NCBI GenBank assembly: GCA_963779615.1
Contig: CAVZZA010000003.1
Location: forward strand, 512,001 to 576,000
Length of the DNA stretch: 64,000 bases
Direction: 5' to 3'
Origin: an uncultured Nitrososphaeraceae archaeon
GTDB taxonomy: Archaea > Thermoproteota > Nitrososphaeria > Nitrososphaerales > Nitrososphaeraceae
Both the position numbers and the translations under genes were made by a program. The notes under the pieces were generated by a model. The model did not search any database and was not told the DNA's origin. It saw only the letters and a list, made by a program, of their open reading frames with translations. Of this stretch, positions 11,250-64,000 are shown piece by piece (position 1 is the stretch's first letter; every line of letters starts with the position of its first letter).

Positions 11250-11324
11250 GGGCTGATGGTTCAGCTTGGCACGAACGTTCGATTCGCAATCGAAAAATCG
11301 CGGGTTCAAATCCCGCTCAGTCCA
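11250..11324 (+). tRNA. tRNA-Ala: tRNA-Ala(CGC), no intron, CCA not encoded
   Basis: Cloverleaf: acceptor GGGCTGA/TCAGTCC with the G3:U70 alanine identity pair, D stem GTTC/GAAC, anticodon stem TTCGA/TCGAA with loop TTCGCAA, T arm GCGGG-TTCAAAT-CCCGC, discriminator A. Confidence 0.97.
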
Positions 11325-11513
11325 TCGACATAATTTAGAAAGGTTTCGGCAGGTTTTAGGTTTGGAAAACCAAATTGTTAACAAAAAACTGGAAGTTTAG
11401 ATCCAGTGTAATATGAAATAGTTAACAAATTTGTTAGCATAAAAAAACGGCCAATAAGGAAAAGCGAAAAATGTGTAAACATACCAAAATATTTGTTAAC
11501 ACGGCTGTTTTCG
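11311..11513 (+). repeat. att core plus family-A arm (copy A1, overlapping the tRNA 3' end)
   Basis: tcccgctcagtccatcga, then GTTAAC-type boxes at 11377, 11421, 11433, 11475 and 11495; homologous to 45172-45372. Confidence 0.9.
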
Positions 11514-11743
11514 ATATCAACTAGACAGGAGAATCATATTTTTACAATAACTTCCGATTCTTATCAACAAGCACTAGATTTTCTAAGAAATTTAAACAAA
11601 AAATTTCATATTAAAATTTATTTAAAAACATTGAAAATACTGAAATCAATATTCAATATTCAATAGATAGAATTCAATTATAGACTTTATATAAAGGTAA
11701 TTTATTTATAAATAATTGCTATCCTTCATAATCATAGAGTTAA

Positions 11744-16313: not shown

Positions 16314-16527
16314 TAATGCATACTATATCCAATTAATTTACTTTTTAATCCTTTGTCAATATTATATAATAAGATTAAAATCAGAAAATTTACCAAGTAT
16401 CATTCGCATACAAAGGTTAATTTGCATTCCAAGTTGATTTAAAATACATATAATATATAAGCAAAGCAATTAAAAAATAATTAATCGTAAAATGGTATTA
16501 TAACCCCTTTACCACAAGGATTTAAAA

Positions 16528-16664
16528 CCCGCTCAGTCCATCGAACAACCTTCGGCAGAAATGCCCGTGAGTTTTTATGCTTATTTTTATGAAATAGTTG
16601 ACCATCAAATCCATGAATTTTGGATGGAAAATGGCAAAAAAGTTGACTATATGGTTGACCATCA
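16528..16664 (+). repeat. att core plus family-B arm (copy B1)
   Basis: cccgctcagtccatcga, then GTTGAC boxes at 16597, 16642 and 16654; homologous to 48858-48996. Confidence 0.9.
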
Positions 16665-16781
16665 TAGCAAGTAAATCCTCTTTGAATGTTTAAATTGGAT
16701 TTGTCTTTATCAAAGAAAATGTTTTTACTCAAAGTAATTGCATCTACATTATCATTTTTTAAAATTTTCGAGGTTTTATCA

Positions 16782-17457
16782 GGTGCTGTTAACTCAGGCG
16801 TTTATCACCTTCATGTTATGCATTTTTGCAAACAGGTTGAACCAGTTTTTGATATGGCGGAAGTCGCACACCGCTTTTCTGCATGGAAAATAGTCGTCAA
16901 ATCCTTCTGTCCTGTCCTTGATGTACTGTATTGTCCTTTCAATAACACTTTTCTAAAATGTGGAATGAATATGATGCTTCAGTTTCAGGAACAGAAAGGC
17001 CTGCGGATACCATGTGCCTCCGTCAGTTGAAACAGGATACTTTCCGTGAGCCTTGACCAGGCCAAAGATAAACCTTTCCGCAACAAGCATGTTTCTCTCT
17101 TTGGAGATTGACAGTGCGAGAATCTGCCTGTCTTTTGGCTCGATGGCAACCCAAAGCCACACCAATTCCGAACCTGTCTTAACAAGTGTTTCATCCACAA
17201 CATATTCTGAAATCCTTTTCCTTGATCCCGTCTTCCTTCCAGGCCTATATTTCTGAATCCACTTCCAGATTGCAACATGGCTTCTCTTTACAATGTGCAG
17301 GTAAGACAACGCCTTGGCAACGTTTCTCAATGACAAACCAAGAAAGTAAAGATACAAACCGTGGCCAATGTGTTTTGAAGGTGTCCTATTTCTCTTATTG
17401 CGCATACAGGAAATGAGCATCCTCAAGCTATAGGATTTTCGTTAAGTTAACAGGGCC
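16782..17457 (-). mobile_element. IS6-family insertion sequence (transposase 16953-17426, frameshifted at the 3' end)
   Basis: TIRs ggtgctgttaact and agttaacagggcc; 8-bp TSD ttttatca at 16774-16781 and 17458-17465; motifs GLSLR, RSHVAIWKW, VDET, STDGGTWY. Confidence 0.92.
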
Positions 17458-23790: not shown

Positions 23791-24853
23791 GATCTCTTGC
23801 GTAATTGCCACTAAACAGCTTTATGACCATCAGTTTCTCATTAACCTGTACTTTCTTTGCTCTCGTATCACAGTTTATCCAGAAAACCATTGCTTTTCAA
23901 GTCATTCCCCGATCTGACGGTAAAGGAGTTTGATGAAATTTATGATAAGGGGATTGCAAAAAGACACGGCAAGCATGAGATCGTGTTTATCCAAAAGAAA
24001 AGATATTATAGAAAGAAGGCTCGGTGCAGGCAGACATTTCAAACGGGATGTCAAAAACAGGTTTCTGACGCTTTTGGTCTGCTACTGCCGTCTTTACATG
24101 ACCTACACGTTGGCTGGTTTTTTGTTTGACTTGTATCATAGTAACATCTGCAGGGATGTATAGAAGATTCAACCGCTGGTTCGAGTGTGTGCCAATTCCA
24201 CAAAAGATGCACAAAATAACCAAAAGGCTGCGCACACCAGAAGAAGTTGAAAAGCATTTCCAAGGCTTTCTGCCTTTCACCTATTGGACAGAACAACAGA
24301 TGCCACGGCCTGAAAACAGGAGAAGAAAAAAGATGTGTTATTCTGGAAAGAAGAAGAAAAGGATGTTGTAAAGACACAGCTTATGGTTAACAACCAAGGC
24401 ATCATTATTCATAAAACAGGCCATAAGAAAGGAGGGATGCATTATTATAATATTTGCAGATATAAAACGAATCATCCTGTAACTCCCCAAAAAAATTGCA
24501 AATGTTAACGTGTTTAACCTTGGTTAAATCGGAGTTGAGAAAGAATTTCCTGAACAAAGATCATCTATACCAAACAAAAAATAAGAGAAACCAAAAAGAT
24601 CTGTCTCAAGAAGAAAAAGAATACAATCAACACCATTCTAGGAAGAGGATAGTGATAGAGCAAGTCATTTGCAGAATGAAAAAGTACAGGATAATTATTG
24701 AGGATGTTTTCCGAAAAAGGCTCAAAAAGTATGATAGGGAATAAGATATAGTATCAGGACTGGTAACTATAGAATTATGAAGCGCCTTTATTAGATGGCA
24801 AATGCAAATGTCATCCGGAACGGTATTTTGGATTTCTAATTATGCAAGAGGTC
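23791..24853 (+). mobile_element. ISL2-like (IS5-related, DDE_Tnp_4-type) element with pseudogenised transposase
   Basis: TIRs gatctcttgcgtaatt and aattatgcaagaggtc flanked by TA; fragments YSGKKK and KRIVIEQVICRMKKY. Confidence 0.85.
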
Positions 24854-27875: not shown

Positions 27876-28095
27876 AAAACGTGGCATGTATAGATTGATT
27901 TTGCCACATATGCCAAACATAAGGAATTAAATCTGTTACTTGAAACATTTGATTATATAGTAACTCAAATTGCTAGTCAGACAATATATGTGGCTAATAA
28001 ATATAATTACCATATATATTATTAAGGCTGATTATTTAATGCCGTTCTGAAGTTATATAGTAGTGATCTTAACTATAACTGGTCTTGCATAAAGT

Positions 28096-29997
28096 TTGCA
28101 ATATAAAAAGATAATAATGATTTCAATAATTGCTTTATCTCTGATATGTACCCTAATATGTACATCTTTGATGGTATTCAATACTAATTTGAGATATGTT
28201 CATGGTTCAGAGTTTAATAACAATTTGCCGGAGGAACAAGGCAACGCGGCCGTCAACAATTTGCCGGAGGAACAAGGCAACGCGGCCGTCAACAATTTGC
28301 CGGAGGAACAAGGCAACGCGGCCGTCAACAATTTGCCGGAGGAACAAGGCAACGCGGCCGTCAACAATTTGCCGGAGGAACAAGGCAACGCGGCCGTCAA
28401 CAATTTGCCGGAGGAACAAGGCAACGCGGCCGTCAACAATTTGCCGGAGGAACAAGGCAACGCGGCCGTCAACAATTTGCCGGAGGAACAAGGCAACGCG
28501 GCCGTCAACAATTTGCCGGAGGAACAAGGCAACGCGGCCGTCAACAATTTGCCGGAGGAACAAGGCAACGCGGCCGTCAACAATTTGCCGGAGGAACAAG
28601 GCAACGCGGCCGTCAACAATTTGCCGGAGGAACAAGGCAACGCGGCCGTCAACAATTTGCCGGAGGAACAAGGCAACGCGGCCGTCAACAATTTGCCGGA
28701 GGAACAAGGCAACGCGGCCGTCAACAATTTGCCGGAGGAACAAGGCAACGCGGCCGTCAACAATTTGCCGGAGGAACAAGGCAACGCAACTATACCTTAT
28801 TCTACTCCTATGTATGGACCAACATTCTACTCCGGAGATTCAATGGACAGTATTGGTGAAAATGGCGCGGGTGGCGTGAATACAACATCTGGTTTTGGTG
28901 GAGGCACTGGCGCGGGTGGCGTGAATACAACATCTGGTTTTGGTGGAGGCACTGGCGCGGGTGGCGTGAATACAACATCTGGTTTTGGTGGAGGCACTGG
29001 CGCGGGTGGCGTGAATACAACATCTGGTTTTGGTGGAGGCACTGGCGCGGGTGGCGTGAATACAACATCTGGTTTTGGTGGAGGCACTGGCGCGGGTGGC
29101 GTGAATACAACATCTGGTTTTGGTGGAGGCACTGGCGCGGGTGGCGTGAATACAACATCTGGTTTTGGTGGAGGCACTGGCACTGGCGCGGGTGGAGGCA
29201 CTGGCACTGGCACTGGCACTGGCGCGGGTGGAGGCACTGGCACTGGCACTCATGGCGCGGTGAGGCACTAGCACTGCGCGGTGAGCATGGCACTGGCGCG
29301 GGTGGAGGCACTGGCGCGGGTGGAGGCACTGGCACTGGCGCGGGTGGAGGCACTGGCGCGGGTGGAGGCACTGGCACTGGCGCGGGTGGAGGCACTGGCA
29401 CTGGCGCGGGTGGAGGCACTGGCACTGGCGCGGGTGGAGGCACTGGCACTGGCGCGGGTGGAGGCACTGGCACTGGCGCGGGTGGAGGCACTGGCACTGG
29501 CGCGGGTGGAGGCACTGGCACTGGCGCGGGTGGAGGCACTGGCACTGGCGCGGGTGGAGGCACTGGCACTGGCACTGGCACTGGCACTGGCACTGGCTGG
29601 CACTGGCACTGGCGCGGGTGGAGGCACTGGCACTGGCGCGGGTGGAGGCACTGGCACTGGCGCGGGTGGAGGCACTGGCACTGGCACTGGCACTGGCACT
29701 GGCACTGGCACTGGCACTGGCGCGGGTGGAGGCACTGGCACTGGCGCGGGTGGAGGCACTGGCGCGGGTGGAGGCACTGGCACTGGCGCGGGTGGAGGAA
29801 ATGGAAATCAGTGTTTATCTAGTCAACATAGGGATGTTGCTGATAGGTGTGCTCCTGACGCATCTGCGGAACACACAAAAACTATACAGGGTAACACAGT
29901 GCTACTTGGTAACATGAGTATCATCACAGTCAAAGGCAACATTGGAATATCTTCAGGAAATATCATATCTATTAAAACCCCAATTATATTGCCATAG
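28096..29997 (+). CDS. secreted low-complexity repeat protein (frameshifts at about 29250-29290 and 29597)
   Basis: Signal peptide, ([12 protein letters not shown])x16, ([15 protein letters not shown])x7, a long GTGAGGGT tract and a short unique C-terminus. Confidence 0.75.
28219..28787 (+). repeat. 36-bp perfect tandem repeat x16
   Basis: Unit aacaatttgccggaggaacaaggcaacgcggccgtc with no spacers. Confidence 0.97.
28864..29178 (+). repeat. 45-bp perfect tandem repeat x7
   Basis: Unit ggcgcgggtggcgtgaatacaacatctggttttggtggaggcact. Confidence 0.97.
29179..29798 (+). repeat. compound ggcact / ggcgcgggtggaggcact repeat tract
   Basis: Mixed 6-, 18- and 24-bp units encoding GT/GAGGGT. Confidence 0.95.
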
Positions 29998-38496: not shown

Positions 38497-38576
38497 ATCC
38501 CGCTCAGTCCATCGACATCATTTTGAAAGGATTCGGTGAAATTTAGGTTTGGAAAACCGAATTGTTAACAAAAAAC
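38497..38576 (+). repeat. att core plus truncated family-A arm (copy A2)
   Basis: atcccgctcagtccatcgacat...tttaggtttggaaaacc.aattgttaacaaaaaac is very close to copy A1; homology stops after the first box. Confidence 0.9.
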
Positions 38577-38836
38577 GATTTACAATAATCATGCAACAAG
38601 GCACTGCCAAAACCGATAATTAAATGTTTATTACCTTCATAACAAAGCATAACATAAACACAGGAGATTAAAATCGCGATTTACTTGGGGCTCATCCGAC
38701 CATAAGCCAAACATATATTACCATATAAGGGATATATATTTTTTAAATTAACGATAGAACTATTAAAAATTCACAAGTAATAGACAATTTTATAATATCA
38801 GCCGATTTGATTTGTAATCATAACATTCACAATACA

Positions 38837-45171: not shown

Positions 45172-45372
45172 CCCGCTCAGTCCATCGACAATGATTCGGA
45201 AGGTTTTGGCGAATTTTATGCTCAAAAAATCAAGTTGTTAACAAAAAATCGGAAGTTTAGATCGGACATACTGTGAAATAGTTAACAAATTTGCTAACAC
45301 AAAATAAACCTACGATAAGGAAAAGCGGCAGATTTGTAAACATTTCAAAATATTTGTTAACACGGCGGTTTC
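45172..45372 (+). repeat. att core plus family-A arm (copy A3)
   Basis: cccgctcagtccatcgaca, then boxes at 45237, 45281, 45293, 45336 and 45356; shares ggaagtttagatc, gaaatagttaacaaatttg, ataaggaaaagcg and caaaatatttgttaacacggc with A1. Confidence 0.92.
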
Positions 45373-45726
45373 CAATGCCAACATTCCAGATAGAACATTT
45401 TATATATGAAAAGTGATAGAAATCCCATTCTACTGATGTAATTTTAACATCAACTAGGAATATTATTCCAATATTTATATTGAATTATATTATCATAGAC
45501 ATGGAAAATTAATCTTTGTTAGACTGTGTTTTTTTAATGTAGATTTTGTCATTTTCAATCACGATTGTTATTTTATCTCTCAATGGGTTTTGACTATCTT
45601 CATTGCGCATTTTTTTTGTCAGTTGCCGAAAATCTTGCCCAAAAAATTATTCACTATAGGGCTTAAATCCAAATTGCTCGCTGATTAATATTCTTATTTA
45701 TTGGAATTCACTACCAATAATGTTAT

Positions 45727-48697: not shown

Positions 48698-48857
48698 TCG
48701 ATGTGTTATAACAGTTGTTTTGGATTTGCTTTATCATAACAAACGCTCAAACTACTTGCCATTTATAGGAATTTTAATCTTTTTTCAATTTACACAAAAA
48801 TAACTCACAGCAATGAAAACCGAATCACAATAGAACTTCTATGCCACATGGAATTCA

Positions 48858-49050
48858 ATCCCGCTCAGTCCATCGAACAGCATTCAGCAGATGTGCCCGC
48901 GTGTTTTTGTGCTCATTTTTGTAAAATAGGTGACCATCAAAGCAGATAATTTTGGATTGAAAATAGCAAAAAAGTTGACTATATGGTTGACCATCAAAAC
49001 ATGAAATTATAATTGTTGGTCAACTGTTAGTTGTTAATGGCCAACCATCA
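48858..49050 (+). repeat. att core plus family-B arm (copy B2)
   Basis: atcccgctcagtccatcgaaca, then boxes at 48929, 48974 and 48986, plus inverted/variant boxes at about 49016 and 49037; shares gcaaaaaagttgactatatggttgaccatca with B1. Confidence 0.92.
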
Positions 49051-63166: not shown

Positions 63167-64000
63167 GATCTCTTGCATAATTAGCCCAAAATAGCTTTAT
63201 TGGCCTTTATCGCTTATCACTATGCCTTTCTTTTATTATCCTACGACAGGTTATCCACAAAACCATTACTTTTCAAGTCATTCACAGGCCTGACGGTAAA
63301 GGAGTTTGACGATATTTATGATAATGAGATATCAAAAAGATACCGCAGGCATGAGATCAAACGATTATCCAATAGAAAGGATAGGGAACGATCCATAGGC
63401 GCAGGCAGGCATTTCAAGTTGGATGTTAAAAACAGGTTTCTGATGCTTTTGGTGTATTACCGCCTTTACATAACCTACACGTTGGCTGGCTTTTTGTTTG
63501 GCTTGGACCAGAGCAGCATTTGCAGGGATATGCAGAAGATTGAGCCGCTGGTAAGAAAGTGCGTGCCACTTCCACAAAAGATGCACAAAACAACCAAAAG
63601 GCTGCGCACACCAGAAGAGGTTGAAAAGCACTTTCCTGGCTTTATTGCCTTCACCGATTGCACGGAACAGCCGATACCACGACCTGAAAACAGGAGGCGA
63701 GGAAAGACATACTATTCAGGCAAGAAGAAAAGGCATACCGTTAAGACACAGCTCATGGTCAACAACAAGGGTCTCATCATTCACAAAACAGGCCACAAGA
63801 AAGGAAAAAGGCATGACTATGACGTCTATAAAAAAATCACCCGGTAACCCCAAATCAGGTTGTCAGCGTGTTTGACCTTGGATGCCTTGGAGTTGAGAAA
63901 GACTATCCAGAACAAAAATCGTCTCTGCCAAACAAAAAGAAGCGAAACCACGAGTTCTCTCAAGGGGAAAAAGAGTACAACCAAAGCCATGCTAGAGAGA
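63167..64000 (+). mobile_element. ISL2-like element running off the window end (transposase 63200-63847, frameshifted)
   Basis: Left TIR gatctcttgcataatt; DCTEQPIPRP...YYSGKKKRHTVK. Confidence 0.88.

Follow-up and report, generated by a model that had tools for sequence, protein, structure and literature searches.

Iterated boxes next to tRNA-Ala(CGC) core copies in a Nitrososphaeraceae archaeon are most likely integrase arm-type docking sites, orphaned in an accretion array

Copies of a tRNA 3' end recur along one contig of an uncultured Nitrososphaeraceae archaeon, and each is followed by an arm of regularly spaced hexameric boxes. What do such boxes serve where no integrase gene accompanies them? 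The window, by which we mean the whole stretch of 64,000 nucleotides that was analysed (G000:C3:512001-576000), belongs to a host genome of 3.17 Mb with ~36% G+C. The sole tRNA gene called in it by ARAGORN is tRNA-Ala(CGC) at 11250..11324 on the plus strand (Rfam tRNA, 62.6 bits), the attB-bearing gene that anchors the array. The core is a 17-mer, CCCGCTCAGTCCATCGA, made of the final 13 bases of this tRNA plus TCGA. Exact matches lie at 11312..11328, 16528..16544, 38499..38515, 45172..45188 and 48860..48876 (core copies 1 to 5), all on the plus strand, and these five are the only exact copies genome-wide; contig C5 holds one extra copy with 1 mismatch, and the reversed pattern, used as a control, gave 0 matches in the genome. 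Left of core copy 2, a motif composed of a small hairpin and a T-arm-like stretch (16504..16527, plus strand) closes segment 1 and is also found left of cores in the relatives G016 and G010. The corresponding left-arm hairpin motif at 48836..48859 (plus strand) closes segment 4, and the hairpin stems of the two differ by paired changes.

An earlier note on this DNA had distinguished two arm families with one geometry and different box words, and an exact search confirmed that each of the five core copies carries an arm of family A (GTTAAC) or family B (GTTGAC). Arm A1 (11329..11521, plus strand) has six boxes: GTTAAC at 11377, GTTAAC at 11421, GTTAGC at 11433, GTAAAC at 11475, GTTAAC at 11495 and ATCAAC at 11516, giving spacings of 44, 12, 42, 20 and 21; it has stops in all six frames and is followed by no integrase. 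Arm A3 (45189..45382, plus strand) repeats the layout at 45237, 45281, 45293, 45336, 45356 and 45377 (spacings 44, 12, 43, 20 and 21), and the hexamer positions in A1 and A3 reproduce the offsets given in the earlier note, +49 and then +44 and +12. Arm A2 (38516..38576, plus strand) retains box 1 only, at 38564; the cause of its truncation is a repeat-related insertion right after that box, not mere shortness, and the insertion is related to a repeat with ~20 genome copies. As a separate observation, arm A7 harbours, at C3:623537-623673 beyond the window, a miniature repeat of ~140 nt whose ends read TGCTTTGTTGCATGA and which is present ~20 times in the genome. A related end is fused to A2 box 1 in the window (38566-38604), and the subterminal TAACAAAAAAC of the repeat resembles an A box.

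In family B, arm B1 (16545..16674, plus strand) has GTTGAC boxes at 16597, 16642 and 16654 (spacings 45 and 12) and has lost the distal inverted boxes; an IS fragment lies downstream on the minus strand (16953-17426). Arm B2 (48877..49045, plus strand) has direct boxes at 48929, 48974 and 48986 and inverted boxes at 49019 and 49040, with spacings of 45, 12, 33 and 21. The proposed offsets of +53, then +45 and +12, are those of the hexamers in B1 and B2, and the stretches TTCGG.AG and TTTTATGCT, said to be shared by A3 and B1, are present in both. An automatic 8-mer motif finder was noisy for the arms of this genome. After B2, an integrase gene is present at this place in relatives and absent in the own genome.

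The box words are concentrated in the arms. In the window, GTTAACAAA has 7 occurrences where 1.45 are expected, the highest count in a shuffle being 4, and 7 of 7 are inside A arms; GTTGACYAT occurs 7 times against 1.12 expected, with 5 of 7 inside B arms. The claim that boxes are kept while spacers drift held for family B, in which boxes have a mean information of 1.82 bits against 1.40 for the rest of the arm, a difference that 1 in 5000 random placements of the blocks equalled (8 copies). For family A (1.34 versus 1.13 bits, 17 copies), 442 of 5000 placements did as well, so that the higher conservation of the boxes is a trend only and not significant; non-box stretches of A arms, such as AAAGGTTTCGG at +11 to +21, are as well conserved as the boxes. 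When A1 and A3 were aligned with the integrase-side arms of more distant loci (L114, L128 and L111), the invariant columns were essentially the six boxes and the spacers differed. The contrast between box and spacer is sharp only over deeper divergence. Orphan A arms also have ~10-11 more bases between boxes 3 and 4, equal to one helical turn, and in long A copies similarity persists to about +195 to +215 past the core. A arms were found in 9 of 41 sampled genomes including G000 (8 of the 24 other genomes of the genus, none of the 16 from other genera), and B arms in 8 of 34 genomes of the genus. An integrase lies within 1.5 kb of 3 of 13 B copies. None lies within 1.5 kb of the family A copies (0 of 27), and A arms in this genus may therefore be fossils.

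Intact elements are found in relatives. In G016, G018 and G011, a B arm comes directly after an intact tRNA-Ala(CGC), and ~290 nt past the core begins an ORF of ~400 aa that matches PF16795, 'Archaeal phage integrase' (29 bits; cut-off 27). An AlphaFold2 model of this protein (pLDDT 71) had as its nearest Foldseek match 3vcf_A, the catalytic domain of the SSV1 integrase (E 5.8e-4, TM 0.65), with Xer, Cre and lambda Int behind it, and the R...K...H/R...HY recombinase positions are invariant in an alignment of 15 sequences. The integrases of the relatives have, by these signs, a tyrosine recombinase catalytic domain; no such gene was found in the window. Since the integrase ORFs beside the tRNA are whole (360-400 aa, starting ~290 nt past the core), they are not of the self-splitting SSV kind. 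A cluster of the form C-x5-GC-x-C-x2-LH is also invariant in all 15 integrases, at about residues 266-278 of the G016 protein and within the catalytic domain; it may be a metal-binding site.

The integrase family is present in 20 of 34 genomes of the genus. A tRNA was called at 20 of 30 integrase loci, 7 being Ala(CGC) and 13 Gly(CCC), with two of the Ala loci overlapping the same region. Members of the Ala clade are at least 58% identical to the G016 protein, a deeper branch is 41-48% identical, and integrases of the Gly clade are 33-40% identical. A scan of species representatives gave 33 integrase loci, all in Nitrososphaeraceae or Nitrososphaerales, and the named related assemblies are Nitrososphaeraceae or Candidatus Nitrosocosmicus. 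Among IMG/VR viral contigs, 26 matched the pattern and 0 of these encode a relative of the integrase. Among sequencing runs, no RNA run was listed as a match, and the matching DNA runs contained shares of only 0.05-0.08 of the sampled words. In metagenome-assembled genomes, the sister subfamily that is 41-48% identical (L114, L128, L158, L160 and L198) is preceded by A-like arms, which agree with A arms in box words and spacing, and arms of the KTVGVRI/V subfamily have box words near-identical to those of A1 and A3, TTGTTAACAAAAAA and then GTTAACAAAAATGCTAACAAAA. At least four box types use tRNA-Ala(CGC), and a GAAAT.C.C motif ~20-27 nt beyond the tRNA end, common to different box classes of the Ala clade, may be a core-type site. 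Together, the integrases in relatives lend support to the suggestion of the earlier note that the arms serve at least two related recombinases with one tRNA target.

The own genome has a Gly-type integrase copy only (C3:1137587-1138633), which lies outside the window in a minus-strand locus with its cognate tRNA-Gly(CCC) (C3:1114387-1138846). After this tRNA, its 3' end recurs three more times, in each case with a partial TTGTTGAC arm, and another copy is found at C1:184852; this element family thus has a further accretion array here. The sequence after tRNA-Ala is unrelated in G041 and contains a different integrase-like gene in G048. In the latter (L134, G048:C1:2153527 onward), a 99%-identical tRNA-Ala(CGC) precedes a different ORF with an N-terminus that looks recombinase-like by eye. 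Should this ORF encode an integrase, tRNA-Ala(CGC) would be the target of two or more unrelated integrase families.

When the spacers between tRNA and integrase gene were read at ~50 Nitrososphaeraceae loci, 5-6 iterated boxes were seen every time, in one layout, a pair 12 bp apart and then boxes ~21 bp apart, with a word that is lineage-specific. Boxes of the Ala clade lie at about +54, +99, +111, +144, +164 and +185, the last three often inverted; those of the Gly clade lie at about +25, +37, +68, +89 and +110, which corresponds to the Ala module without its first box. Spacings of 44-45, 12, 32-43, 20-21 and 21 are common to A arms, B arms and those that bear an integrase. The repeats are distinct from the 17-bp core and keep a fixed phasing, as arm sites would. 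No boxes were found within 350 nt to the left of 7 cores of the own genome and 2 cores of G016.

The box word tracks a seven-residue strand that lies just before two helices at the integrase N-terminus. Classed by the residues at strand positions 3, 5 and 7, S-T-R goes with GTTGAC (15 loci, both clades) and T-G-R with GTTAAC (L077, L079/L111, L114 and L128 in the Ala clade, L081 in the Gly clade). T/V-G-K goes with GGTTAACC (L085, L086, L093), T-G-I/M with ATTAAT (L087, L089), A/C-N-K with GGAACC (L075, L115), N-N-K with GGAAGA (L076), V-A-R and I-S-R with GTTTAC (L094, L096), and T-S-R with GTCTAC (L100). No exception was seen among the classed loci; the L091-type subgroup, which has a two-residue insert and no evident boxes, was left unclassed. 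A tree of 24 rows that leaves out the N-domain shows 11 changes of class, the minimum being 9 for 10 labels, and sister integrases differ in class in three pairs (L080/L081, L086/L100 and L087/L094). When L114 and L128 are compared with L115, or L075 with L076, the helices are near-identical and both strand and box differ.

The rule was read by eye first and then applied to held-out metagenome loci, three of which had <220 nt upstream and were dropped. Among the 21 held-out loci of known class, 18 had the predicted hexamer at least three times within 420 nt, and in those 18 it was the commonest of seven candidates; since several of the loci are near-copies of training loci, this test is only partly independent. 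The other three, of the KTVGVRI/V type, had 0 predicted hexamers within 420 nt. A wider look at these three, made post hoc, found 3-5 GTTAAC boxes 456-588 nt upstream, beyond a divergent gene, with spacings of 44, 12, 32, 20 and 21. The metagenome loci also revealed two new classes, HTLCARI with GTATAC and KTVGVSL with CGTTAA/CATTAA, in addition to the eight in the first locus set. Considering that the arm and the coding region of the N-domain are 300-600 bp apart, joint recombinational transfer of the two could give such covariation without contact.

Pfam gave nothing significant for the N-domains and no arm-binding family. The best PDB profile match, a weak one (E 0.2), is to the ribbon-helix-helix domain of NikR at residues 6-48; the nearest named ESM clusters all belong to the ribbon-helix-helix clan (scores 0.84-0.87, taken as a lead only), and the AlphaFold2 model shows an extended stretch followed by helices at 55-67 and 73-81. 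These predictions suggest that the N-terminal ~50 residues of the integrase are probably a ribbon-helix-helix domain. As to other candidate readers, no accessory DNA-binding gene beside the integrase gene is conserved across clades. A PadR-like/DUF4364 gene follows it in L071, L073, L106 and L128; since this gene was seen in part of the Ala clade only and at none of the Gly loci inspected, the integrase N-domain is the sole candidate reader present everywhere.

As the main alternative, might the boxes nevertheless be read not by the integrase but by a small winged-helix protein that the element encodes separately and that has a directionality or architectural role? The basis for this idea is a suggestion made for the haloarchaeal SNJ2 system, which has conserved P/P' arms and for which a MarR-like protein, Orf3, is named as a possible binder in the part of the paper available to us (PMC5861418). 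The PadR-like gene of the four Ala-clade loci would suit it, as would a divergent winged-helix gene located between arm and integrase gene in L114 and L128. However, no PadR-like or other winged-helix gene was seen within ~1.5 kb downstream of the integrase gene in the tRNA-Gly loci, L075, L076, L111 and L115, all of which have boxes, and the hexamer tracks a strand within the integrase itself. We regard a winged-helix binder as unlikely. The boxes could instead serve as operators for control of the integrase promoter, by the integrase or by another repressor, with no role in a recombination complex. They lie immediately upstream of a TATA-like element and the integrase start, and proteins of the ribbon-helix-helix type usually act as repressors, binding to sub-sites in tandem. 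Moreover, 5-6 boxes, each perhaps occupied by a dimer, exceed what a synapse of four subunits needs, which counts against docking and fits an operator as well. Against a purely regulatory function, orphan arms retain the six-box layout to about +195 beside unrelated cargo in either orientation, and in cassette copies across genomes similarity begins exactly at the core, with the arm included. This behaviour suits a recombination module, and the two roles can coexist; boxes acting as operators alone seem quite improbable.

The regular 21-bp phasing of the boxes is iteron-like and a minus-strand ORF (16481-16732) crosses B1, raising the possibility that the arms are replication iterons, a non-coding RNA or the coding remnant of a split SSV-type integrase gene. 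But all six frames are stopped in 18 of 18 long A copies; no frame is open across all 8 B copies, and all six are stopped in the three B copies that bear an integrase. Rfam detected only the tRNA between 11000 and 17000, and folding z-scores of arm RNA, from -2.6 to +0.7, are unremarkable. The counter-reading offered in the earlier note, that an arm is a transcribed RNA or a coding fragment, fails on these grounds. The integrase genes next to arms are whole, not split, and no replication gene is linked to arms. We consider this group of explanations highly improbable.

Further core-plus-arm copies were located by a profile search of the genome. Three lie beyond the window on the same contig and in the same orientation as the window copies: B3 (C3:612667, core with 2 mismatches), A5 (C3:618541, core decayed) and A7 (C3:623446, split by the ~140-nt miniature repeat). 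Two are dispersed and on the minus strand, A6 (C3:188529) and A4 (C5:840982), the latter a 1.2-kb paralogue of the 38499 junction. The array has 8 cores in a single orientation between C3:523312 and C3:623446 (~100 kb), five exact ones in the window and three degenerate ones further along C3. With these additional copies downstream, tRNA-Ala heads a ~100-kb stack of at least eight att-bounded segments of 3.7 to 52 kb each. Synteny did not place the end of the array, the tRNA-Ala and DNA ligase genes not being adjacent in 5 relatives.

The cargo of the segments includes PsbP-like, TPR, NHL and PT-repeat proteins, a GMC oxidoreductase, a DyP peroxidase, several metalloproteases, a LodA-like oxidase, a nuclease and many IS fragments. 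Pfam detected no integrase in the window and C3:576-640 kb (26 + 64 ORFs). A tblastn search of the own genome with the integrase family found the tRNA-Gly locus only and nothing in the array, and PF00589 gave 3 weak matches across the genome, all outside the array. The segments are bounded by direct att copies at one target and have no integrase, as in a CIME or accretion array. Two repeat features of the window were recorded besides. Long tandem repeats of 36, 45 and 24 nt at 28075-29870 (G+C 0.49-0.64 against 0.36 for the genome) sit in an ORF matching MgtE_N (28096-29271) and form a compositional island in segment 2. A repeat of ~700 nt has two copies 39.4 kb apart, at 23856-24580 and 63232-63938 (80-83% identity), the second of which overlaps a DDE_Tnp_4/HTH_Tnp_4 transposase ORF.

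Signs of decay and of shuffling are both present. The integrase-bearing element is proximal to the tRNA in G016 and in the own tRNA-Gly locus. In G016, the B element extends over 9.4 kb to the next core, includes ATPase genes, and is followed by two integrase-less A segments, one of which holds a 68-aa fragment of an integrase C-terminus. Core decay in the own array grows with distance from tRNA-Ala, and repeats or degradation have affected the distal cores and arms. As for shuffling, a 1.73-kb cassette with a single gene, for a 480-aa protein, and with a core and A arm at both sides occurs at 95% identity in four genomes (L046/L027 in G016:C93, L035/L022 in G023:C71, L023/L032 in G021:C185 and L041/L021 in G005:C169). 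Similarity between its copies begins at the left core (three pairings) and reaches ~150 nt into the arm that comes next; in three pairings the flanks are different. Long A arms, moreover, have kept their similarity to about +195 to +215 though integrase-less. Decay and shuffling both fit the bacterial scheme of accretion and cis-mobilization as described in the accessible part of PMC5704250.

We conclude that arm-type docking is the most likely function of the boxes, which in this genome stand as orphans in an accretion array. To the fuller reading, that the arms are P' arms left by successive integrations of an element specific to Nitrososphaeraceae, with docking by the N-domain included, we assign a probability of roughly 0.6. 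Integrations into the 3' end of tRNA-Ala(CGC) would leave behind the integrase-proximal (P') arms of attP-type sites. An intact element would comprise the tRNA, the 17-bp core, an arm of ~200 bp with 5-6 boxes, a promoter and the integrase, itself a tyrosine recombinase that combines an SSV1-like catalytic domain with a small N-terminal one, probably of the ribbon-helix-helix type. Judging from the anatomy of the arms, their linkage to integrases in relatives and the covariation of strand and hexamer, all of which are observed, the N-terminal domain would bind the boxes and the remainder of the integrase would act on the core in recombination, amounting to two-site binding of the lambda Int kind achieved with a different docking fold. 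Three strand residues would decide which hexamer is read, S-T-R selecting the GTTGAC of family B and T-G-R the GTTAAC of family A, so that elements with a common tRNA-Ala core could differ in arm specificity. Orphan arms could then act only with a matching integrase that arrives in trans.

A bolder extension, which we put forward tentatively and at less than even odds, is that of a modular system in which a swappable arm and a ribbon-helix-helix reader are matched through three residues and integrase-less cassettes are shuffled in trans. If so, integrases acting on one tRNA core would be mutually independent, and tRNA-anchored cassette arrays, some of them single-gene, would be the archaeal functional counterpart of integron or CIME gene capture, supplying secreted enzymes to soil ammonia oxidisers. 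The apparent three-residue-to-hexamer rule, if it holds, could also yield programmable and mutually independent integration tools. The ~100-kb array itself illustrates how accessory genes (proteases, a peroxidase, oxidoreductases, TPR and NHL proteins) are stacked at one tRNA in soil ammonia-oxidising archaea.

The elements can be compared with several known systems. SSV1-type 'suicidal' integrases provide the best structural match (3vcf_A) and the sole Pfam match (PF16795), but there attP lies within the integrase gene, which is split upon integration, whereas here the att site is outside and the gene is whole. Integrons, with IntI, attI and hairpin attC sites, differ in that the present array has no integrase, its arms are poorly folded and its boxes are direct repeats. 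The CIMEs of streptococcal ICEs resemble the array as integrase-less, att-bounded segments stacked at one target gene, according to the portion of PMC5704250 at hand. They are bacterial and linked to conjugation, whereas here at least eight segments span 100 kb in an ammonia-oxidising archaeon and some units are single genes of 1.7 kb. For the thaumarchaeal mobilome, PMC6563490 describes att sites that are short, tRNAs as targets and integrations in tandem; arms and Nitrosocosmicus do not occur as words in the available part of its text. A 2021 account of archaeal tyrosine recombinases (PMC8371274) treats lambdoid arms as an exception and, in the part available, describes no archaeal arm sites, the terms 'arm-type' and 'ribbon-helix-helix' not occurring there. 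Full-text literature searches, as far as their sources could be consulted, returned no description of arm-type sites of archaeal integrases, the matches being bacterial by title, and no ribbon-helix-helix arm reader in tyrosine recombinases was found by title or abstract among main texts. The nearest archaeal precedent is SNJ2 of haloarchaea, going by the accessible part of PMC5861418: its integrase likewise targets a tRNA, its P/P' flanks are conserved and a small winged-helix protein is encoded nearby, with a core of 14 bp. It differs in belonging to another integrase family and in requiring the accessory proteins Orf2 and Orf3, and neither iterated boxes nor an N-terminal docking domain appear in that part of its description (PMC5861418).

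With lambda-type systems the elements have in common a tyrosine recombinase, a short core shared with the target, an extra N-terminal domain as the candidate reader of repeats, and direct repeats that are unrelated to the core, fixed in phasing and located in the integrase-side arm. The lambda attP has arm-type sites P1, P2 and P'1-P'3, bound by a heterobivalent integrase. Arms are found there on both the P and P' sides, whereas here boxes are on the integrase side only. In contrast to the lambda and Tn916 fold, the N-domain of the present family is without an arm-binding Pfam match and looks like ribbon-helix-helix; the catalytic domain is SSV1-like, and the host is an archaeon. To our knowledge, the archaeal integrases described so far have simple att sites. 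If an archaeal family combines complex arms with a docking domain of its own, the lambda paradigm would extend to Archaea, on a different fold.
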